A stretch of 22,868 nucleotides of DNA from a virus. Taxonomy: Duplodnaviria; Heunggongvirae; Uroviricota; Caudoviricetes. Position 1 is the stretch's first letter. Each line of letters begins with the position of its first letter. Both the position numbers and the translations under genes were made by a program. The notes beneath the pieces are model-generated. The model did not search any database and was not told where the DNA came from. It saw nothing but the letters and a program-made list of their open reading frames with translations. Below are positions 3,388-22,868 of this stretch, one piece after another. The DNA is taken from IMG/VR virus record IMGVR_UViG_3300007177_000114; one strand, 5' to 3'.

Positions 3388-5010
3388 ATGAAAATTAACG
3401 TAATTAAAAGAGATGGTTCAATTGAACCACTTAATCTAGAAAAATTCCATAGAGTTGTCCGTTGGGCATGTGAAGGTCTTTCTGGAGTATCTGAATCAGA
3501 AGTTGAAATTAAGTCTCAGATTCAGTTTTATGACAAGATCAAAACTTCTGATATCCAGGAAACTTTAATTAAAGCGGCATCAGAACTTATTGATGTGGAT
3601 GCTCCAAATTATCAGTATGTTGCTTCTAGACTTATCAACTATCATCTTCGCAAGCAAGTCTATAATGGACCAAATCCTCATAATCTATTTCAGCATGTAG
3701 TAAATGTTGTTTCAGATGGATATTATGATCAACAAATTCTTTCTCAATATGATGATGAAGAGTTTGCTTATCTTAATAAGCAATTAGATCATGATAGAGA
3801 TTTTACTGTTCCATATGTGGGTATGGAACAATTTCGTGGTAAATATTTAATTAGAAATCGTGCTACAAATAAATATTATGAGACACCTCAGATGGCATTT
3901 ATGCTTATCTCCATGGTTCTTTTTAAAAATTATCCAAAAAGTGAACGTTTAAAATGGGTGAAGGACTTTTATGATGCGGTATCTACATTCGAAATCTCTC
4001 TGCCGACTCCTATCATGGCTGGTCTACGCAGTCCACAGAAGCAATTTAGCTCTTGTGTCCTGGTTGACTCCGATGATTCGCTAGATTCTATTAATGCCAC
4101 AACTTCTGCTATTGTAAAGTATGTCTCACAAAAAGCAGGAATTGGTATTAATGCTGGAAGAATTCGTGCTATTGGTTCACCTATTAGAAATGGTGATGCC
4201 ACTCACACTGGTGTCATTCCTTTCTATAAAATGTTTCAAGCAGCGGTTCGTTCCTGCTCTCAAGGTGGTGTTCGTAACGGCGCCGCAACACTATATTACC
4301 CAATTTGGCACTATGAAGTTGAAGATCTTCTAGTTCTAAAAAACAATAAAGGTGTTGATGAAAACCGAATTCGTCATGTTGATTATGGCGTTCAATTCAA
4401 TAAGCTTATGTATGAACGTCTATTGTCTGGTGGTAATATTACACTATTTTCACCACATGATGTGCCAGGTCTATATAAGGCATTTTTCATCAATTATGAT
4501 GAATTTAAGCGTCTATATGAAGAAGCTGAATCAAATCCAAATATTCGTAAGAAGACTATTTCAGCGCTTACTTTATTTACATCTTTTCTACAAGAAAGAA
4601 AAGATACCGGTAGAATCTATTTGATGAATGTGGATCATGCAAATGATCACGGTGCTTTTATTAAAGAAGAGGCTACAATTTATCAAAGCAATCTGTGTCT
4701 AGCTGGCGATACTTGGCTTACGGTTCAACTTGACAATGGTGATTTAAAAGATATTCAACTACAAGATTTAGTTGAATCTAATAATAATAACTATAAGATT
4801 TTATCACGTAATATTAAAACTGGCGTCGATCAATTTAAGCCTGTTACTGCTAGAGCAAAAACGGGTACAAATAGACATGTCATGAAGATTACAAATGAAA
4901 ATGGTGATAGTATTATTTGCACACCCGAACATAAAATCTATACTAAAAATAGAGGTTACGTTGAAGCAAAAAATCTTCTTCCAACTGATATTTTACAGTC
5001 ACTAAGTTAA
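3388..5010 (+). CDS. nrdA: class Ia ribonucleotide reductase alpha, N-terminal part (aa 1-436) fused to split-intein N-fragment (aa 437-540)
   Basis: ATP-cone (VIKRDG), PTPIMAG, QFSSCVL, QGGVRNG; NrdA stops at YQSNL, followed by intein block A CLAGDT and block B CTPEHKIYT, then a stop. Confidence 0.95.
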   Translation: MKINVIKRDGSIEPLNLEKFHRVVRWACEGLSGVSESEVEIKSQIQFYDKIKTSDIQETLIKAASELIDVDAPNYQYVASRLINYHLRKQVYNGPNPHNLFQHVVNVVSDGYYDQQILSQYDDEEFAYLNKQLDHDRDFTVPYVGMEQFRGKYLIRNRATNKYYETPQMAFMLISMVLFKNYPKSERLKWVKDFYDAVSTFEISLPTPIMAGLRSPQKQFSSCVLVDSDDSLDSINATTSAIVKYVSQKAGIGINAGRIRAIGSPIRNGDATHTGVIPFYKMFQAAVRSCSQGGVRNGAATLYYPIWHYEVEDLLVLKNNKGVDENRIRHVDYGVQFNKLMYERLLSGGNITLFSPHDVPGLYKAFFINYDEFKRLYEEAESNPNIRKKTISALTLFTSFLQERKDTGRIYLMNVDHANDHGAFIKEEATIYQSNLCLAGDTWLTVQLDNGDLKDIQLQDLVESNNNNYKILSRNIKTGVDQFKPVTARAKTGTNRHVMKITNENGDSIICTPEHKIYTKNRGYVEAKNLLPTDILQSLS

Positions 5011-5017
5011 TCTCAAG

Positions 5018-5067
5018 TATAAATACTCCTTGAAATAAACCTACCTATACATTTCAAGGAGTATTTA
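5018..5067 (+). promoter_or_regulatory. T4-type late promoter TATAAATA plus RBS-sequestering hairpin upstream of the endonuclease
   Basis: TATAAATA 5018-5025; perfect 17-bp inverted repeat 5020-5036 / 5051-5067 covering SD AAGGAG (5056-5061); ATG at 5070. Confidence 0.88.
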
Positions 5068-5069
5068 AC

Positions 5070-5789
5070 ATGGCTATAGTCTATAAAATTACAAATAAAG
5101 TAAATGGTAAAATCTATTTTGGGTTAACTACAAGAACTCTTAAACAACGATTTGATAGTCATTTATCAGCTGTCAGACAAGGTAGTAAGTTTAGATTCCA
5201 TAATGCTATAAGAAAATATGGAGTTGATTCTTGGGATCTTGAAGTTGTTGCAGAAAGTGATGATATGGATTTTATTCGTAAAAGGGAAGAAGAATTGATA
5301 TCGGAATATAATACAACAAATAACATGTTTGGCTATAATGCAAAGCCAGGCGGTTGTGGTGGATGGATTGTAAAACCTGAAAATTATGATAAATGGAAAG
5401 AAAATAATAAAGCATCTGTAACGGGTGAAAAAAACGGTAGATTTAACGGCGTAACAAATGCTGAATTATACCAATTAGTAAAAGAGGAATCAATCAAACT
5501 TGGATATATACCATCTTCAAGATATATGATCAAAAATTATTATCCTAAGTTTCCTAAATCATTTAATGATTATAGATTTAATGGTTCCTATAAAAATCTT
5601 GTGGATATCTTACAAAAAGAAATAGATTTGAAGTTTAATCCATATAAAAGAACAGATGAACACATTGAAAAATTAAGTAAAGCAAATTCTGGTAAGAAAT
5701 GGTTTAATAACGACAAAAAAAATTTACAATGCTTTCCAGATCAAGTTCCTGATGGTTTTAAACCTGGTAGATTAAAAAGTAAAGGATAA
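5070..5789 (+). CDS. GIY-YIG homing endonuclease (Seg-like)
   Basis: IVYKITNKVNGKIYFGLT (GIY-YIG variant), conserved R (KQRF), E (EEELI), N (GYN); C-terminal NUMOD-like RTDEHIEKLSKAN and WFNND...GFKPGR. Confidence 0.88.
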   Translation: MAIVYKITNKVNGKIYFGLTTRTLKQRFDSHLSAVRQGSKFRFHNAIRKYGVDSWDLEVVAESDDMDFIRKREEELISEYNTTNNMFGYNAKPGGCGGWIVKPENYDKWKENNKASVTGEKNGRFNGVTNAELYQLVKEESIKLGYIPSSRYMIKNYYPKFPKSFNDYRFNGSYKNLVDILQKEIDLKFNPYKRTDEHIEKLSKANSGKKWFNNDKKNLQCFPDQVPDGFKPGRLKSKG

Positions 5790-5794
5790 TATAA

Positions 5795-6892
5795 ATGTTA
5801 ACAATCGAGTATCTCGATGAAACTATTGATGTATATGACATTACAGTGGAAGATAACCATAATTTCTATGCTAATGGTATTTTGGTTCACAATTGTTCGG
5901 AAATTGATCTTCCAACAAAACCACTAGAACATATTTTTGACCCAGAAGGTGAAATTAGTCTATGTACTCTTGCAGCTATAAATTGGGGAAAAATTCGTGG
6001 AACTTCTGATTTTGAGCGCCCTGCTAGACTTATCGTTCGTGCTCTTGATGAATTACTTGACTATCAGGATTATCCAGTCTTGGCAGCAAAAAACTCTACA
6101 ATGGCAAGACGTCCTCTTGGTGTCGGTATCATTAACTTTGCTTATTGGCTCGCTAAAAATGATCTTACTTATTCTGATATTGGGGTAGAAGGTCTAAAGA
6201 AAGTTCATGAATATGCTGAGGCTTGGTCATATTATCTGATTAAAGCTTCTGCTGATCTTGCCGTAGAAAAAGGTGCGTGTCCGAAATCCCATGAAACTAA
6301 GTATTCACTGGGTATGGTACCTATTGATACTTACAAGAAAAATGTTGACAATCTTGTGGATCCGGTTTATAAATTTGATTGGAACTCTCTGCGAATCCAG
6401 CTATCAGAGTATGGAATTAGAAATTCTACACTGATGGCACTAATGCCGGCAGAAACATCAGCTCAAATCTCCAATTCCACAAATGGGATTGAACCACCTA
6501 GAGCTCTTGTTTCGGTAAAGTCATCTAAGGATGGTATCTTCAAGCAAGTAGTACCTGAAGTTCGTAAACTAAAAAATAAGTATGATCTTCTTTGGGATCA
6601 AAAATCTCCTGAAGGTTATCTACAAATCTGTGCTGTATTACAGAAGTTTATCGACCAAGGTATTTCAGTCAATACTAGTTATAATCCAGAAAATTATCCT
6701 CTTGAAGAAGGTGAAACTGTTCATAAAATTCCTATGTCAGTTCTTCTCAAAGATATCATTCAGTTCTATCAGATGGGTGGTAAGCAATTGTACTACTTTA
6801 ATACATATGATGGTGCTGGTGAACAAGATGTTGTTCCGGAACTAGAACAAAGTATTATTGAAGATCAAGATTGTGATAGTTGCAAAATATGA
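5795..6892 (+). CDS. nrdA: split-intein C-fragment (33 aa) fused to NrdA C-terminal part (332 aa)
   Basis: HN|CSEIDLP, ISLCTLAAINWG, RRPLGVG, LMPAETSAQ, DQGISVN, KQLYY, C-terminal CDSC redox pair; predicted spliced length 768 aa. Confidence 0.95.
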   Translation: MLTIEYLDETIDVYDITVEDNHNFYANGILVHNCSEIDLPTKPLEHIFDPEGEISLCTLAAINWGKIRGTSDFERPARLIVRALDELLDYQDYPVLAAKNSTMARRPLGVGIINFAYWLAKNDLTYSDIGVEGLKKVHEYAEAWSYYLIKASADLAVEKGACPKSHETKYSLGMVPIDTYKKNVDNLVDPVYKFDWNSLRIQLSEYGIRNSTLMALMPAETSAQISNSTNGIEPPRALVSVKSSKDGIFKQVVPEVRKLKNKYDLLWDQKSPEGYLQICAVLQKFIDQGISVNTSYNPENYPLEEGETVHKIPMSVLLKDIIQFYQMGGKQLYYFNTYDGAGEQDVVPELEQSIIEDQDCDSCKI

Positions 6893-17030: not shown

Positions 17031-17058
17031 CTGAGGTTTGCTTCACACCAAACCTCAG
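17031..17058. terminator. 10-bp stem-loop at the end of the ATPase gene (no U-tract on the - strand)
   Basis: CTGAGGTTTG / CAAACCTCAG with 8-nt loop. Confidence 0.45.
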
Positions 17059-17930
17059 TTCTTGCAGCAAGTCACAATGGCACGCTTCATCCAGTTGGAG
17101 TCGCTCTTACGGCGAAGAGCACCAATCTTAAGAGCCATGCGCAGGGAAAGCTCACGAAGACGACCGGCGTTCTTCTCGATGAAGGTCACCACATCAGCCT
17201 GGGCATCATCGCTAAGACCGATGTTCCGCAGCAGACCCTGGCGAACCACCTGACGGATACGGATGAGATAGTCACGCTGGGTCTTCATTGCCAGGTCGAT
17301 ATAGTGAGCTCGGGATACCAGAGCCGAGAGGTGTGGGGCAAGCTTGGAGCCGCGGTCGATCATGGCATCGAAGTCGTAGTTCGTGATGAAGATCACAGTG
17401 CCCTGGAACTCGAAGCTCTTAGGCAGACGCTCGGCCGATTCCTCGTCGATCAGCGTGCCCTCAGTCATATACGAAATGATACGCTTGTCGTTGGTGTCAA
17501 GCGCCGCCTTGAGAAGGGTGATAGCAGTCTCGTCAAGGAACACATCGTCAGCATCGTCAAACACCAGAACGGAGCCGGGAGTACGGTGCTGATAGAGCAG
17601 CTTGAAAAGCGCCGGGGCCTTAACGTAACCCTTGACGATACGGTGAGACGTAGAGTTCGGGTCCCAGGACTCGAGTGCCTTCTCGACCGTGAAACTCTTG
17701 CCGAGACCGGCCGGACCAGACACGATCAGCGCACGAACATCACCGTCGATGGCAGCGTTGGCCATATCAGACAGGATTTCAAAACGGTCCGAGAGCTTCT
17801 GCTCAATCTCTTCGTCCGTCTCGACCACCACAGGCTCCACAGCCTGTGCAACGTTCATGATCTTGGTCACCTTATCGGTCTTGGAAACTCGGGGCTTGCG
17901 ATAGCCATTGCGGGGAACGCCACGGGGCAT
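17055..17930 (-). CDS. P-loop (AAA+-like) ATPase
   Basis: Walker A GPAGLGKS, Walker B VLVFDDAD, sensor-like FITN; AAAGGA SD; GC-rich codons. Confidence 0.85.
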   Translation of the reverse strand: MPRGVPRNGYRKPRVSKTDKVTKIMNVAQAVEPVVVETDEEIEQKLSDRFEILSDMANAAIDGDVRALIVSGPAGLGKSFTVEKALESWDPNSTSHRIVKGYVKAPALFKLLYQHRTPGSVLVFDDADDVFLDETAITLLKAALDTNDKRIISYMTEGTLIDEESAERLPKSFEFQGTVIFITNYDFDAMIDRGSKLAPHLSALVSRAHYIDLAMKTQRDYLIRIRQVVRQGLLRNIGLSDDAQADVVTFIEKNAGRLRELSLRMALKIGALRRKSDSNWMKRAIVTCCKN

Positions 17931-17957
17931 GTCAGTGTCCTTTAAGTTTGTATTTTG

Positions 17958-17986
17958 AACTTAACTCAAGCTTGGATTAAAGTCAA
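17958..17986 (-). promoter_or_regulatory. early promoter for the ATPase
   Basis: GG-TTGACT-TTAATC family, 17 nt, TAAGTT. Confidence 0.6.
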
Positions 17987-17989
17987 CCC

Positions 17990-18115
17990 TTAATCTTCAA
18001 GAGAGTTAAGATATTCTTCGTATTCAGCAAGATCAGCAGCCGTCGGCTCGTAGGCTTCCTCGCAGGAGACCTCGGCGTCAAAGTCATCGAAGGGGTTTGT
18101 GTTGTCATTCATCAT
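17990..18115 (-). CDS. 41-aa very acidic peptide (not in ORF track)
   Basis: MMNDNTNPFDDFDAEVSCEEAYEPTAADLAEYEEYLNSLED: 14 D/E, no K/R/H; own promoter; GC-rich codons like neighbouring early genes. Confidence 0.65.
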   Translation of the reverse strand: MMNDNTNPFDDFDAEVSCEEAYEPTAADLAEYEEYLNSLED

Positions 18116-18121
18116 AGTGTC

Positions 18122-18150
18122 TTTATACCACCTGGTTGGATTAAAGTCAA
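18122..18150 (-). promoter_or_regulatory. leftward early promoter
   Basis: TTGACT, 17 nt, TATAAA on the - strand; inverted copy of the rightward promoter. Confidence 0.8.
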
Positions 18151-18158
18151 CCATGACA

Positions 18159-18521
18159 AATCAATGGGTTAGCCTAATGACCATCTTAACCCATTGAAAA
18201 GATTATAAAAATTTTTTTGAACTTTTTTTGCACCGACTTAGCAATCAGACACATATAGATGCTGCTAGGACGATAAAACCTAATCTTTTCAATGGGTTAG
18301 CTGCTAACAAAAAGTCAATGATATCAATGGGTTAGGTGCTCACATCGTTTTTCGGCAGTCTAAGCCACCCTAGATGGGTTTATCATACCGCCTGGGCCGT
18401 CAAGATCAAAGCTAGCCGGGATCTTGGCTAAGTGGTTGATAAGATTGTATAAAAAATTTTTGTAGTTTTTTTGAAAAAATTTTGCTAATCTTATCAACCA
18501 CTTAGCGCTAACCTATTGATT
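18159..18521. repeat. non-coding array of 7 IHF-consensus sites in nested inverted repeats with A/T tracts
   Basis: WATCAANNNNTTR perfect at 18159(+), 18322(+), 18429(-), 18492(+), 18509(-); one mismatch at 18187(-), 18287(+); perfect IRs 18187-18205/18281-18299 (19 bp) and 18427-18446/18487-18506 (20 bp). Confidence 0.75.
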
Positions 18522-18529
18522 TCCTTGGG

Positions 18530-18558
18530 TTGACTTTTAAACCAGGTTGCGGTATAAA
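18530..18558 (+). promoter_or_regulatory. rightward early promoter
   Basis: TTGACT, 17 nt, TATAAA. Confidence 0.8.
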
Positions 18559-18583
18559 GACACTATGATGAATGAGGTACAAA

Positions 18584-18934
18584 ATGTCTGATTATATTCC
18601 GATTGGTTATATTCAGGTCGACTCTGATAAAGTCATCGCTGCGTGTGATGATTATCTTGAGTGGGTCGACCAGAGATATACTGAAGCAAAGAACGAATAT
18701 ATCGAAAGTATTATTAAAACTAAGCACGGCTTTCTTTGGAATAAGCGCTTCTATACCCGTGAAGAAGCTGAACATATGTGGAAAAACGGCACCGGTGATT
18801 ATCTGTATTCACCGCATCAGCTGCAGACACTTAGGGGAGCAATTACGACCCAACAAGTTAAGGAGCTTCGTATCCTGGCTCTCAACTCTGACAAGGTTAT
18901 CGTGAGTAACAAAATGTCATTCCTTTTTGACTGA
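18584..18934 (+). CDS. hypothetical protein
   Basis: GAGGT SD favours MSDYIP (18584) as start. Confidence 0.7.
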   Translation: MSDYIPIGYIQVDSDKVIAACDDYLEWVDQRYTEAKNEYIESIIKTKHGFLWNKRFYTREEAEHMWKNGTGDYLYSPHQLQTLRGAITTQQVKELRILALNSDKVIVSNKMSFLFD

Positions 18935-18942
18935 TTTTTTGG

Positions 18943-18971
18943 TTGACTTTAATTTCAGATTAGGTTATTGG
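18943..18971 (+). promoter_or_regulatory. possible early promoter
   Basis: GG-TTGACT-TTAAT family -35; weak -10 (TATTGG). Confidence 0.4.
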
Positions 18972-18995
18972 TTTAGTTATAACAAGGAGCTTACC

Positions 18996-19169
18996 ATGAA
19001 CGTTTCCACCGTCCTCTCCCGCATGCACGCCTTTGCCCGTACGACCAAGGATGACGTCGCCTCGAATGAGGTGGCTCGTGTTGCCGATCGTCTGGCCCAT
19101 CAGGGCCCGTTCGAAGCACCGCTGACCGATGCCGAGATTGCTGTTATCTCTCGGTTCGTGTATGCATAA
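18996..19169 (+). CDS. 57-aa hypothetical protein
   Basis: AAGGAG SD before MNVSTVLSR; GC-rich codons begin exactly there. Confidence 0.7.
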   Translation: MNVSTVLSRMHAFARTTKDDVASNEVARVADRLAHQGPFEAPLTDAEIAVISRFVYA

Positions 19170-19174
19170 ACCTA

Positions 19175-19202
19175 TTGACATTTATACTCAACCTGGTATA
19201 AT
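19175..19202 (+). promoter_or_regulatory. early promoter sharing its -10/leader with the primase promoter
   Basis: TTGACA, 16 nt ending TGG, TATAAT; 19195-19225 is 29/31 identical to 63-93. Confidence 0.8.
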
Positions 19203-19235
19203 GGTTAGTGACCAAATAATGATGGTATAGGTAAT

Positions 19236-19418
19236 ATGTATCTAGTAAGTTTTACTAACTTTGGTTATACCAAAGACTTTGCTACCAAGGAACAGGCTCA
19301 AATCTATATGGAAAGGGCATGCTTAGAGTCTGTTCTTATGACTACGAAGGGTGAAATCCTTGGTGGATTCTCTCCCATCTCTGGATCACAAAAAATGGTT
19401 GACTTTAATCTCGACTAG
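19236..19418 (+). CDS. 60-aa hypothetical protein
   Basis: ORF directly behind the promoter, AGGT SD. Confidence 0.6.
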   Translation: MYLVSFTNFGYTKDFATKEQAQIYMERACLESVLMTTKGEILGGFSPISGSQKMVDFNLD

Positions 19419-19426
19419 GTTATAAT
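19399..19426 (+). promoter_or_regulatory. early promoter for DUF932
   Basis: GG-TTGACT-TTAATC, 16 nt, TATAAT. Confidence 0.75.
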
Positions 19427-19458
19427 CCTACTATCATAACAAATCAGGAGACTTAAAA

Positions 19459-20412
19459 GTGGCTCACAATATCGAAATGATCAACGGCAAGGCTCAGATG
19501 GCATATGTCGGCGAGACTCCCTGGCATGGTCTGGGTGTTTCTGTTCCTGCTGATCTGACTCCCGAACAGATGCTCGAGGCGGCCGGTCTCAACTGGGAAG
19601 TGGAGAAGATCAAGGCATATGCCAAGGTCGGTGGCAAGAATGTCGATGTTGGCCGTTCTGCTCTTGTCCGCAAGATGGACAATAAGATTCTAGATATCGT
19701 CTCGAACGATTGGAATCCGGTGCAGAATACCGAAGCGTTTGAATTCTTCAACGACTTCATTGCCGAGGGTGACATGGAGATGCATACAGCCGGTTCTCTG
19801 GCTGATGGTCAGATTGTCTGGGCCCTGGCCAAGATCAAGGATGGGTTTGATCTGTTTGGTGGCGATGAAGTGGAATCGTATCTCCACTTTACCAACTTCC
19901 ACAAGTATGGTTTCTCCACTGACGTGCGGTTCACTCCGATCCGTGTGGTCTGCAACAACACGCTGACTCTATCCCTTAACACCAAGGTCGAGCGCTTTGT
20001 TAAGATTAGTCACCGTCGTGAGTTCAACGGTGACAATGTCAAGCTAATGCTTGACATCGCCCAGGAGAAGCTTGCCAAGTACAAGGAAATGGCTGCGTTC
20101 CTTGGTACCAAGCGCTACACCGACGAGAATATGGTCGACTACTTCAAGCGTGTGTTCCCTGTCTCTGGTGGACCGGATGCTAAGAAGGAACTTAGCAAGA
20201 ACGCTAAGGTTGCTCTGTCCGTAGTTGATACTCAGCCTGGTGCAGACTTTGCTCGTGGCACTTTCTGGCAGCTGTTCAACACGGTGACCTACACCGCCGA
20301 CCATCTGATGGGTCGCACCCAGGACTCTCGTCTGACGTCTGCTTGGTACGGCAACGGCCGTAATATGAAGACCAAGGCGCTTGAGACTGCCATCGAAATG
20401 GCAAACGCTTAA
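19459..20412 (+). CDS. DUF932 (TIGR03299-like) phage/plasmid protein
   Basis: MAY.GETPWHGLG, VQNTEAFEFF, TAGSL..G..VWALA, TPIRVVCNNTL, GT.W..FN.VT; AGGAG SD, GTG start. Confidence 0.88.
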   Translation: MAHNIEMINGKAQMAYVGETPWHGLGVSVPADLTPEQMLEAAGLNWEVEKIKAYAKVGGKNVDVGRSALVRKMDNKILDIVSNDWNPVQNTEAFEFFNDFIAEGDMEMHTAGSLADGQIVWALAKIKDGFDLFGGDEVESYLHFTNFHKYGFSTDVRFTPIRVVCNNTLTLSLNTKVERFVKISHRREFNGDNVKLMLDIAQEKLAKYKEMAAFLGTKRYTDENMVDYFKRVFPVSGGPDAKKELSKNAKVALSVVDTQPGADFARGTFWQLFNTVTYTADHLMGRTQDSRLTSAWYGNGRNMKTKALETAIEMANA

Positions 20413-20421
20413 AAATAACGG

Positions 20422-20449
20422 TTGACAAACTCCTAGATTGATATATAAC
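20422..20449 (+). promoter_or_regulatory. early promoter for the DUF6745 pair
   Basis: GG-TTGACA, 16 nt, TATAAC. Confidence 0.6.
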
Positions 20450-20480
20450 TAATCTATCAAATAACAGAAAGGACTTAACA

Positions 20481-20834
20481 ATGAAGACTTTTACTAAGAT
20501 GGCTGCTCAGGGTGACTTCATTATCCTGCGTATCCCTTCCATTCCTGCCAATGTGGAACGTGTCCGGCCAGACAATAGTGGCCATATTGTGGTTGCTCAT
20601 TCTGAAACTGGCCATGATCACGTGATGGTTGCCGATCGTGTTGAGGCTTATAAGCCAGCTGGTGTAAAGGAGGCTGATCTCTACGAGCTTTTCCTTTCCG
20701 TCTCTGCGCCTACTGAGATCAACCACCTTCGTACCTTTGATACTCATGAAACTCTGCTTGTCCCACCTGGTGATTATATGGTACGACGTCAGCGTGAATA
20801 TGTTGCCGAGGGATTCCGTCGAGCTCAGGACTAA
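20481..20834 (+). CDS. His-motif protein of the type usually adjacent to DUF6745 genes
   Basis: AQGD, VAHSETGHDH, H..TFDTH, PPGDY.VRRQREY; AAAGGA SD. Confidence 0.75.
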   Translation: MKTFTKMAAQGDFIILRIPSIPANVERVRPDNSGHIVVAHSETGHDHVMVADRVEAYKPAGVKEADLYELFLSVSAPTEINHLRTFDTHETLLVPPGDYMVRRQREYVAEGFRRAQD

Positions 20835-20894
20835 GAGCTCAGAGCTAAAGTTTAGCTAAACTCAAGTTTATCACATAGTAAAGGTAGTTATATT

Positions 20895-21740
20895 ATGAAG
20901 AAGATCGACAAGCTGACTCCGGAACAAGAAGCTCAGCTCGAGGTTTATCGTGACAAGTGGATCAAGATCGGACTCTCCACCGAGCGTGTAGATCATGATG
21001 CGGCACGTGCAGCCGTAGAACTTCTCTATAAGTGTGGTGGACTTGAGCCGCCCAAGATGATTCTATTTGCTAACGGACCCAAGCATGCCAAGAAGCTTCT
21101 TGGTGATCGGTCAGTGATAGAGAGTTGTGTGTATGGTTCTCATGAGGCTGCTTGGCTTAGCTTCTATGACTATATGCAAAATGTTCTTGGTATTGACTTC
21201 GGTGGTAAGCTTGATGGCCTCTGGGCTGTTGCAAAGAATTGTGGTTGGGTATCCTGCTACGATACACTAGCCATTATCCAGGATCGTCCTCTACACATCA
21301 AGATGGATGAGGACAATCGACTGCACTGCGAGAATGGTCCTGCCATTCTCTATGATGATGGGTTTGCGGTCTATGCTTGGCATGGTGTTCGCATCCCCGG
21401 TGAGTGGATCACAAACAAGAGCTCCCTGACTCCTCAGATTGCTCTTACCTGGGAAAACATGGAACAGCGCCGGGCCGCTTGTGAAATCCTAGGTTGGGTT
21501 CACATCCTCAACAAACTTAATGCCAAAGTGCTGGATACCGATCCAGATCCTCAGATCGGCACCCTTGTTGAGGTTGATATTCCGGAGATTGGTAAGGAGC
21601 GCTTCATCCGTGTTCTGTGTGGAACAGGCCGTGAGTTTGCTATCCCGGTGCCACCTAATATGAAGACGGCTCTGGAAGCAAATGCTTGGACATATGACAT
21701 TGACCCTGACCTTCTCAAAACTCTGGAAGTCCGGACTTAG
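20895..21740 (+). CDS. DUF6745-like protein lacking an internal tetrapeptide repeat
   Basis: KIDKLTPEQEA...WIKIGLST; YGSHEAAWLSFYDY; CGW; RLHCENGPAI...DGFAVYAWHGVRIP; EQRRAACEILGW. Confidence 0.75.
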   Translation: MKKIDKLTPEQEAQLEVYRDKWIKIGLSTERVDHDAARAAVELLYKCGGLEPPKMILFANGPKHAKKLLGDRSVIESCVYGSHEAAWLSFYDYMQNVLGIDFGGKLDGLWAVAKNCGWVSCYDTLAIIQDRPLHIKMDEDNRLHCENGPAILYDDGFAVYAWHGVRIPGEWITNKSSLTPQIALTWENMEQRRAACEILGWVHILNKLNAKVLDTDPDPQIGTLVEVDIPEIGKERFIRVLCGTGREFAIPVPPNMKTALEANAWTYDIDPDLLKTLEVRT

Positions 21741-21756
21741 TTCCGGACTTTTTTTT
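21727..21756 (+). terminator. intrinsic terminator
   Basis: 9-bp stem AAGTCCGGA/TCCGGACTT, 6-nt loop, T8 run. Confidence 0.85.
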
Positions 21757-21778
21757 CTTTAATTAAGAAAATAGTATA

Positions 21779-21952
21779 ATGTTTTCTGTTGTTATTAAAC
21801 AAATTCGAAATATGCCTTGGGGTCAAATTTCTGATCAAACTCTAGCTCAAGTAGATGATCAAAGTAGAGATCAGATTTGGAAACAAGTCCGAGATCAAAT
21901 TCCAACTCAAGTCTTGGAGCAAACTCTAATTGAGTTTTTTAGTCAAAGATAA
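21779..21952 (+). CDS. Q-repeat mini-gene 1 (57 aa, degenerate; not in ORF track)
   Basis: MFSVVIKQIRNMPWGQISDQTLAQVDDQSRDQIWKQVRDQIPTQVLEQTL...; Q every 4th residue. Confidence 0.6.
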   Translation: MFSVVIKQIRNMPWGQISDQTLAQVDDQSRDQIWKQVRDQIPTQVLEQTLIEFFSQR

Positions 21953-21961
21953 GATAAATCC

Positions 21962-22192
21962 ATGAACGTAGTCAATCAACTTAAGGCCCAAGTCAATAGT
22001 CAAAATATAACTAAAGTTCTGGATCAAGTTCGAGATCAAATTTTAGATCAAATTTTGCCTCGTATGTGGGGTAAAGTTGATATTAAAGTCGTGGCTTGCA
22101 TATGGGACCAAATTGATGATCAAATTATGCCTCAAATTTTAAATCAATCATGGGATCAAATTCAGATACAAGTTTCGGAAGAAAATCTATGA
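21962..22192 (+). CDS. Q-repeat mini-gene 2 (76 aa)
   Basis: DQVRDQILDQIL...WDQIDDQIMPQILNQSWDQ; ends VSEENL-stop with ATGA overlap. Confidence 0.7.
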   Translation: MNVVNQLKAQVNSQNITKVLDQVRDQILDQILPRMWGKVDIKVVACIWDQIDDQIMPQILNQSWDQIQIQVSEENL

Positions 22193-22440
22193 ACTTAAAA
22201 AATAAAGTATTTCATGAAATACATACCAAGATATTTGATTATGTCTTTAAGAAAGAATTCAATATTATTGAATTACACTTGTGGCACAAGATGTATAATC
22301 AAGTCACTCGTCAAATTGATGATTTAATAACAGATCATGTACACGATTTTATTGCATCGCAATTTATTGCATCGCAATTTTTACACTTAGAATATGATAC
22401 CGAACTAGTCTCCGGAGAGAAAAGCTATGAGAGTAGTTAG
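22189..22440 (+). CDS. Q-repeat mini-gene 3 (83 aa, most degenerate)
   Basis: starts in the ATGA overlap (MNLKNK); YNQVTRQIDD; exact 15-nt duplication 22348-22377; terminal motif out of frame. Confidence 0.55.
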   Translation: MNLKNKVFHEIHTKIFDYVFKKEFNIIELHLWHKMYNQVTRQIDDLITDHVHDFIASQFIASQFLHLEYDTELVSGEKSYESS

Positions 22441-22609
22441 TCAAATTCAACATAGTACTTTGAATAATGTTAAAAATCAACTTTATGGTCAAATCTGGAA
22501 TCAAGCCTGGGATCAAGTCCATAATCAAATCTGGATTCAAATCTGGAATCAAGTCCTGGATCAAGTCCTGGATCAAGTCCATGATCAAGTCTGGGAGGAA
22601 AAGCTATGA
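22427..22609 (+). CDS. Q-repeat mini-gene 4 (60 aa)
   Basis: QIWNQAWDQVHNQIWIQIWNQVLDQVLDQVHDQVWEEKL; GGAG SD. Confidence 0.72.
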   Translation: MRVVSQIQHSTLNNVKNQLYGQIWNQAWDQVHNQIWIQIWNQVLDQVLDQVHDQVWEEKL

Positions 22610-22836
22610 ACACTAGTGTCCAAGTCTGGAATCAAGTCCTGAATCAAGTCTGGAATCAAGTCCATAATCAAATCTGGAATCAAGTCCGTAGTCAAGTCTG
22701 GGTTCAAATCTGGAATCAAGTCCGTAGTCAAGTCCAGGATCAAGTCCAGGATCAAGTCCGTAGTCAAGTCTGGGTTCAAATCTGGAATCAAGTCCGTAGT
22801 CAAGTCAGGGATCAAGTCTGGGAGGAAAAGCTGTGA
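22606..22836 (+). CDS. Q-repeat mini-gene 5 (76 aa)
   Basis: near-pure Q-[VI]-x-x repeat; GGAGG SD 7 nt before ATG; ends VWEEKL. Confidence 0.72.
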   Translation: MNTSVQVWNQVLNQVWNQVHNQIWNQVRSQVWVQIWNQVRSQVQDQVQDQVRSQVWVQIWNQVRSQVRDQVWEEKL

Positions 22837-22868
22837 TCACTAGTGTTCAAGTCTGGAATCAAGTCCGG
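22833..22868 (+). CDS. Q-repeat mini-gene 6 (partial, runs off the window)
   Basis: GTGA overlap and GGAGG SD; (M)ITSVQVWNQVR... Confidence 0.65.
   Translation, partial: MITSVQVWNQVR

Follow-up and report, generated by a model that had tools for sequence, protein, structure and literature searches.

The 22,868-nucleotide stretch of Caudoviricetes DNA analysed here (IMG/VR record IMGVR_UViG_3300007177_000114; hereafter the window) contains a gene for a DUF6745 protein that lacks the internal tetrapeptide repeat carried by many of its relatives, preceded by the gene for a small partner protein of 117 residues (p117) and followed by an array of free-standing mini-genes encoding the same class of repeat (Table 1). 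These mini-genes probably correspond to the internal repeat of DUF6745 in a detached form. The fuller statement, namely that the locus is a split DUF6745 module in which the mini-proteins dock in trans on the repeat-less protein, is only narrowly favoured. Taken as a whole, the locus has the appearance of a phage system of three parts that evolves quickly and has not been described before. It presents the tetrapeptide-repeat proteins of phages in a split form, with a real chance of constituting a new system.

The assignment to DUF6745, which the initial annotation had made, was confirmed by a profile hidden Markov model search: the product of ORF (open reading frame) 20895-21740 matches PF20530 with 119.8 bits (cut-off 27; E 1.3e-34) over profile positions 3-198 of 206. 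The DUF6745 domain occupies residues 73-272 of the window protein. A distinct helical domain, likewise conserved, spans residues 1-70 and is a family-wide feature that lies outside the Pfam model. The motif of this N-terminal domain (N-domain), LTPEQ...KW..IGL.T, precedes the Pfam domain and is present in the window protein as LTPEQ...KWIKIGLST; the domain was detected in nearly all of ~190 relatives, and the consensus of 49 full-length relatives aligns with the window protein end to end. The linker between the N-domain and the HEAAWLSFYDY helix consists of nine residues, DRSVIESCV, without periodicity. Thus, the window copy lacks the internal repeat, as had been claimed, and does not show the fused architecture, in which the N-domain is separated from the DUF6745 domain by 25 or more residues of period-4 repeat. 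An AlphaFold2 (AF2) model (predicted local distance difference test, pLDDT, 95.1; predicted template modelling score, pTM, 0.84) places the protein in a single compact unit with the linker at the surface. Comparison of this model with solved folds gave no usable match (Foldseek/PDB best E 0.23; VIA-align best Z 4.4), and PDB sequence-profile searches with the DUF6745 and p117 alignments returned nothing under E 0.1; these missing matches are no proof that either protein has a new fold.

DUF6745 is a large family, with 9338 cluster representatives matching PF20530 at E<=1e-3, and its more than 9,000 clusters at 50% identity are spread over phages, prophages and many bacterial phyla; no mention of it was found in the literature consulted. 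In repeat-bearing relatives, a period-4 repeat of 25-270 residues lies exactly where the window protein has its nine-residue linker. For example, a 425-residue phage relative carries ~130 residues of SSLx at this site, a Mycobacterium abscessus prophage protein (gp38) carries ~200 residues of QLxx, and among the 150 best cluster representatives there are many with arrays of QVxx, QLxx, SVxx, SLxx, ATxx or NLxx. The initial annotation had stated that family members usually bear such a repeat. The site and the type of repeat proved to be real, and the frequency was overstated, because short alleles are not rare and a clean repeat occurs in about one third: of 188 classified relatives, a clear period-4 repeat is present in 65, the linker of another 59 is long but non-periodic or degenerate, and that of the remaining 64 is short, as in the window protein. 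Repeats in a degenerate state may also underlie the long non-periodic linkers seen in fused proteins. Nearly all copies in bacterial genomes are long. Two short DUF6745 paralogues lie on a single viral contig (L018:1570-4046), separated by QVxx and RVxx mini-genes; contig L010 carries a short DUF6745 gene without an adjacent array, and a fused gene in a Hyphomicrobiales metagenome-assembled genome (L058:2987-4422) contains a frameshift between the repeat and the C-terminal domain (C-domain) that represents either a pseudogene or a sequencing error.

Table 1. Coordinates of the DUF6745 module, its regulatory sites and the repeat mini-genes in the window.
Feature	Position	Strand	Remarks
Seventh Q[VI]xx mini-gene, 63 aa	16810..17001	-	Left GC-island border, downstream of the 291-aa ATPase gene
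Sigma-70-like promoter, TTGACA-16 nt-TATAAC	20422..20449	+	Read from sequence; 5' of the p117 gene and DUF6745
p117, 117 aa, all-beta	20481..20834	+	phrog_27831; directly upstream of DUF6745
Repeat-less DUF6745 protein, 281 aa	20895..21740	+	PF20530, 119.8 bits; phrog_31813, E 2.7e-19
Intrinsic terminator hairpin, 11 pairs + T-run	21725..21752	+	Between DUF6745 and the array; right GC-island border
Mini-gene 1, 57 aa (alternative start 21812)	21779..21952	+	Partly degenerate Q[VI]xx; GC 33%, backbone-like
Mini-gene 2, 76 aa	21962..22192	+	Q[VI]xx repeat, tail SEENL
Mini-gene 3, 83 aa from the ATGA-overlap ATG	22189..22440	+	Degenerate period-4, head MNLKNKV
Mini-gene 4, 60 aa	22427..22609	+	Q[VI]xx repeat, tail WEEKL
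Mini-gene 5, 76 aa, 17 Q[VI]xx units	22606..22836	+	ATGA-coupled, GGAGG site; predicted DUF6745-docking chain
Mini-gene 6, start only	22833..22868	+	GTG overlapping the previous stop; continues past the window end

Downstream of the DUF6745 gene, at least six Q[VI]xx ORFs are tiled end to end, joined by ATGA, GTGA or short overlaps and provided with GGAGG-type ribosome sites, in agreement with the earlier claim that repeat mini-genes stand free next door. Tandem Repeats Finder (TRF) reports a 12-nucleotide period with 27.8 copies at 22489-22821. This repeat is open in all six frames, and the arrays could accordingly be viewed as elements that act primarily at the level of DNA (hot spots of recombination, iteron-like sites or the edges of a mobile GC-rich island), with the ORFs as by-products, a view to which their inverted arrangement around the island at 17055-21760 and their association with insertion/deletion polymorphisms between conserved genes would lend themselves. 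It is nevertheless highly unlikely, given that ATG or GTG starts, GGAGG ribosome sites and translational coupling via ATGA are found in the Q[VI]xx frame only, whereas the antisense frames over the repeats have TTG starts and no ribosome site in the junction sequences. Fused DUF6745 proteins of high-GC bacteria preserve this pattern of amino acids despite very different codon usage, and the non-repeat heads and tails of the mini-proteins are conserved across lineages. In L068, which represents an unrelated DUF6745 lineage, five QLxx genes with the head MISVKDQL and the acidic tail ...EET are joined by ATGA overlaps; the anatomy common to different lineages comprises a head M-x-[ST]-[VI], an acidic tail and a start that overlaps the previous stop as ATGA. 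On such coding features, the mini-ORFs are here taken as real genes.

The notion that they are decaying fragments of a once-fused DUF6745 gene, or artefacts of repeat assembly, deserves very little credence. Although repeats are hard to assemble and the repeat of the frameshifted gene in L058 was scored as "free" ORFs, the split layout recurs in more than 20 contigs from different samples with heads and tails intact, the arrays comprise up to eight or more genes and thus far more repeat units than one fused linker could provide, and the DUF6745 gene of the window is itself intact and modelled at a pLDDT of 95. A word search for homologues of one mini-protein returned only 18 matches, none of them named, and mini-gene 3 has a weak match to phrog_32228 (E 6.8e-4). 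DUF4816 was considered for the mini-proteins and dismissed as a low-complexity similarity (24 bits versus a cut-off of 29.4). In another locus (L077:6238-8192), a short DUF6745 gene and p117 are followed by ten overlapping genes of 52-68 residues, and in several of these the x-V-x-x periodicity is no more than degenerate. Mini-gene arrays are therefore undercounted when repeats are detected by strict rules.

The connection between the state of the linker and the presence of mini-genes is seen in surveys of DUF6745 loci. When loci were sampled from the DUF6745 side, free period-4 mini-genes accompanied 15 of 23 short alleles and 0 of 27 fused or long-linker alleles at their loci, an association that is strong in raw counts (Fisher p 2e-7, without correction for kinship). 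The converse sampling, which started from the repeat DNA, yielded the same split: ten loci contained a fused DUF6745 gene and none of these had mini-genes, and multi-gene arrays flank short alleles in L101, L114, L135, L128, L129 and L082. The prediction of the initial annotation that repeat-less alleles should co-occur with free mini-genes while repeat-containing alleles should not is thus borne out in both directions. A FastTree phylogeny based on the C-domain groups the window with the first-found positives in one all-short clade of 20 rows; taken by themselves, these positives could therefore reflect a single event. Ten further short alleles were picked from other parts of the tree. Arrays lie directly beside the gene in four of them that are set apart on the tree (P0013/L068, with the five QLxx genes; P0010/L070-71; P0045/L072; P0023/L075). 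P0116 has an array of overlapping small genes, as judged from gene layout only, and the ten small genes at P0046 display a period-4 pattern in degenerate form; no array lies within 5 kb of P0065 or P0133, and the contigs of P0094 and P0024 are too short to show one. Five array-bearing records without a clear DUF6745 gene near the array were additionally searched for PF20530. In the three larger ones (13.7, 98 and 197 kb, the last 100% complete), a DUF6745 gene lies at another place in the record and is in each case of the short type with arrays beside it; the two records without DUF6745 are fragments with an estimated completeness of 12% and 4%.

The arrays turn over rapidly. Two related viral contigs, L004 and L007, are collinear with the window at 75-85% DNA identity, and this collinearity ends exactly at the DUF6745 stop codon. 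Beyond this point, the arrays of the window and of L004 and L007 are not collinear and match each other only repeat to repeat, and in a further contig, L011, DUF6745 is followed by the same flanking genes and no array at all. Gain, loss and rearrangement of arrays therefore proceed at a much higher rate than change in the core.

The constant companion of DUF6745 is p117. Its match to phrog_27831 (E 2.8e-8) covers residues 3-117 against profile positions 6-124 of 124, whereas Pfam, NCBIfam and PADLOC gave no match. Adjacency of the two genes holds at every locus long enough to show the neighbour (~70 loci from bacteria, prophages and phages, in either order), including 36 of 36 bacterial loci; p117 usually lies immediately downstream of DUF6745 in bacteria and upstream in the clade of the window. 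The protein carries the motifs QGD, HSETGHDH and RQREY, and 14 positions are invariant in 42 sequences (Q10, G11, H40, S41, E42, T43, H47, H82, R84, T88, H89, R105, E106 and D117), which look like a candidate active or metal-binding site on the basis of sequence conservation. The AF2 model (pLDDT 87.5) is an all-beta domain for which nothing convincing was found among solved folds (Foldseek/PDB best E 0.13; VIA-align best Z 3.9); the triphosphate tunnel metalloenzyme (TTM)/CYTH fold, an eight-stranded beta-tunnel lined by charged residues, was considered, and several of its chains matched p117 weakly (Z 2.7-3.5 at a root-mean-square deviation of 4-9 A), with no Foldseek match, and a feature search of the ESM Atlas with p117 returned nothing but viral clusters without names. 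In the window, the initial annotation had placed the partner gene directly upstream of DUF6745 under a shared early promoter. The position holds, and there is no terminator between the two genes; the promoter was read from the sequence and was omitted by a strict promoter scan because the final base of its -10 hexamer is C, and the module is presumably expressed early. In bacteria, the module neighbours early and recombination genes of prophages (Rad52, RdgC, YqaJ, RusA, integrase and HNH). A sequence search for DUF6745-p117 fusions found none, and only p117-HNH fusions turned up: two proteins (P0173 and P0175) combine p117 with an HNH_3 endonuclease domain. In L072, an HNH gene lies between p117 and DUF6745. 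A 366-residue viral DUF6745 cluster in the ESM Atlas resembles the p117 fold (TM-score 0.73 over 102 residues) and may be a DUF6745-p117 fusion.

A structural connection between the mini-proteins and DUF6745 is suggested by one three-chain co-fold, in which the DUF6745 alignment and the p117 alignment were combined with the 76-residue product of mini-gene 5 as the scored partner. The mini-protein scored 0.79 (runs 0.76-0.80), compared with 0.02 for the best control, so that the co-fold of core, partner and peptide proposed in the initial annotation gave a positive outcome. Together with the profile search and the co-occurrence survey, all three computational checks put forward there support its interpretation. 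The mark was attained by 58 of 80 solved complexes and by 2 of 110 mismatched pairs, counts that hold only roughly here because the co-fold used its own alignments and three chains. The runs agreed in at least 88% of their contacts with a partner pLDDT of at least 71, and the score dropped to 0.02 when DUF6745 was swapped for an unrelated protein. The lowest predicted errors are those of contacts between DUF6745 residues 15-26 and 83-90 on one side and mini-protein residues V47, V51, V55, I59 and V67 on the other. These V/I residues represent the fixed hydrophobic position of the repeat, and linker residues 72-80 of DUF6745 also belong to the interface. The predicted groove is formed by the two conserved helices that flank the site of repeat insertion and carry the motifs KW..IGL and HEAAWLSFYD, and the conservation of its residues W22, G26, L27, Y45, P62, W87, F90 and Y91 is the same in short forms as in repeat-bearing ones. 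The simplest reading of this model is that the groove would hold a repeat helix either in cis, in the fused proteins, or in trans, in the split form.

Among known proteins, the closest counterparts of the window module are the fused DUF6745 proteins themselves. Those of the Mycobacterium prophage prophiGD102-1 (gp38, QSM05137.1) and of Caudoviricetes sp. cta39025 (UOF77368.1) have the same N-domain, the same DUF6745 domain and an adjacent p117 homologue, and their repeats belong to the same class as those of the window mini-genes (a polar residue followed by V/L/I/T and two variable residues). By contrast, the repeat is covalently internal in these proteins, whereas in the window it is gone from the gene and encoded in separate mini-genes. 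The families phrog_27831 and phrog_31813 contain p117 and DUF6745 as sequence members, with labels of "unknown function" and no mechanism attached. A further parallel is offered by mycobacteriophage Tweety gp54, which contains a central array of 40-48 AAxx tetrapeptides (PMC2884959; PMC9262239). Like Che8 gp57 and PMC gp51, gp54 is a tunable counter-defence protein, with 15-48 AAxx repeats, the number of which varies between phages (PMC2884959; PMC9262239). Mutations that alter the repeat number retune its activity against a prophage defence, and escape mutants with more or fewer gp54 repeats overcome the Phrann gp29/gp30 defence (PMC9262239; PMC2884959). As in repeat-bearing DUF6745, a 12-nucleotide, tetrapeptide-encoding array lies centrally between unique ends, and the first two residues of the unit are fixed while the third and fourth vary; unlike the situation in the window, the repeat is fused and the flanking domains are different. 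Membership of gp54 (L081:4645-5769) in DUF6745 was considered and rejected, as there is no PF20530 match at E<=1 and the N- and C-terminal sequences differ; no p117-like neighbour was present among the three adjacent genes scanned. Since gp54 is not a DUF6745 protein, the resemblance is one of design and not of descent. From the gp54 analogy, the sigma-70-type promoter and the prophage early-region context, a role of the module in host takeover or counter-defence may be tentatively suggested.

Several observations weigh against the docking of mini-proteins on DUF6745 and bear on a different explanation, in which the mini-genes would be an independent, self-expanding family of small genes of large lytic phages, serving as decoys or self-assembling helices and not acting via DUF6745. 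They would then have only the repeat type in common with the DUF6745 linkers, and their proximity would result from a common hyperplastic early region. DUF6745 has 49% G+C as compared with 30-37% in mini-genes 1-4, and the sharp GC step coincides with a strong terminator between DUF6745 and the array, which therefore do not form one operon and may have had different histories. Mini-genes also occur away from DUF6745, such as the seventh mini-gene of the window, and the L010 contig (L136 / G001:C1:10693-16399) has large Q[VI]xx arrays on both strands at 8-14 kb from its DUF6745 gene. Some short alleles have no adjacent array (L011, L020, L074 and L080; none within 5-6 kb), and the arrays of Tweety gp54 work outside any DUF6745 context. 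Kinship and habitat confound the two-by-two table of short and fused alleles, the short ones stemming mostly from lytic-phage contigs and the fused ones mostly from bacterial genomes. The tree support for independent origins is weak, and in the independent-pairs test the sign test cannot reach significance because there are only three well-supported pairs. The co-fold docking is in turn a prediction, and any hydrophobic groove may accept an amphipathic helix. The confident contacts all involve DUF6745, and none was predicted between the mini-protein and p117. With respect to function, no PADLOC and no fold matches were obtained. On the other hand, an independent family would not readily account for the complete absence of arrays beside fused alleles (0 of 27, and 0 of 10 in the repeat-first sample), for the short-type DUF6745 genes with arrays beside them in the three larger of the five array-bearing records, or for a co-fold that is specific for DUF6745 (0.79 versus 0.02) and involves a groove built from the most conserved motifs of the family. 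The independent origin of the mini-genes is thus considered unlikely, but it merits more attention than either the DNA-element or the decay explanation.

If the split-module reading is correct, a feasible model may be as follows. The core is a two-gene unit of DUF6745 and the all-beta, His/Arg/Glu-rich p117. In most bacterial (prophage) copies, a hypervariable tetrapeptide segment is looped out between the N-domain and the HEAAW...FYD helix, and in the T4-like lineage of the window, as well as in several other DUF6745 lineages, this segment is missing from the gene and repeats of its kind are encoded by arrays of small coupled genes. Because the predicted contacts are spaced at i/i+4, each mini-protein would most likely be one long amphipathic helix, the Val/Ile stripe of which would plug in trans into a groove formed by DUF6745 helices 9-26 and 81-96. 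Different mini-proteins could thereby furnish the same core with different lengths or surfaces. It is also tempting to speculate, although this is rather doubtful, that the arrays constitute a library of interchangeable specificity helices that retarget or retune one DUF6745-p117 counter-defence or host-takeover effector against many host proteins; such a system would be a protein-level modular analogue of the repeat tuning of gp54, achieved by gene arrays and not by slippage within one gene. If the docking is true, the locus would be a natural example of a hypervariable protein segment that has left its own gene for a gene array able to expand. It would then also be a strong candidate for a phage system of counter-defence or host takeover that is new, and many arrays of 12-nucleotide repeat mini-genes in uncultured T4-like phages would be explained. 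In any case, the locus provides an experimental handle, as it combines a compact, confidently modelled core, an obligate small partner with invariant His, Glu and Arg residues, and detachable repeat helices for which a specific docking site is predicted.

The window itself is a fragment of a T4-like phage with backbone genes for a primase, the small subunit of ribonucleotide reductase, PhoH and exonucleases (PHROG matches), and the module belongs to a compositional island. The phage backbone has 34% G+C, and the island, from 17055 to ~21760, has 49-56% (ATPase 56%, DUF932 52%, p117 49%, DUF6745 49%; flanking mini-genes 30-37%). The island consists of two divergent arms: the minus arm comprises an ORF of 54 residues with acidic composition and a 291-residue Walker-A ATPase, and the plus arm comprises three small ORFs, a DUF932/TIGR03299 gene, the 117-residue gene and the DUF6745 gene. 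Q-repeat mini-genes lie at both borders of the island in inverted orientation. The island as such is collinear with L004 and L007 at 75-85% nucleotide identity, and a megablast search of 19400-22868 against 50,697 phage records gave zero matches. NCBIfam had no match for DUF6745, p117 or the mini-proteins, and PADLOC-DB (E<=0.01) had none for DUF6745, p117, DUF932, the ATPase or the one mini-protein searched. The 291-residue protein (17055-17930, minus strand) contains the Walker-A motif GPAGLGKS and has no Pfam, PHROG, NCBIfam or PADLOC match; its relatives are 88% identical, and the copy in L014 is 49% identical. The DUF932/TIGR03299 gene (19459-20412), which encodes a "phage/plasmid-like protein", lies upstream of the p117-DUF6745 module and is linked to it in the phage clade of the window only and not in bacteria. 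At the other end of the window, the large subunit of a class Ia ribonucleotide reductase (3388-6892) is encoded by two ORFs of 540 and 365 residues, and a GIY-YIG homing-endonuclease gene (5070-5789) lies between them.

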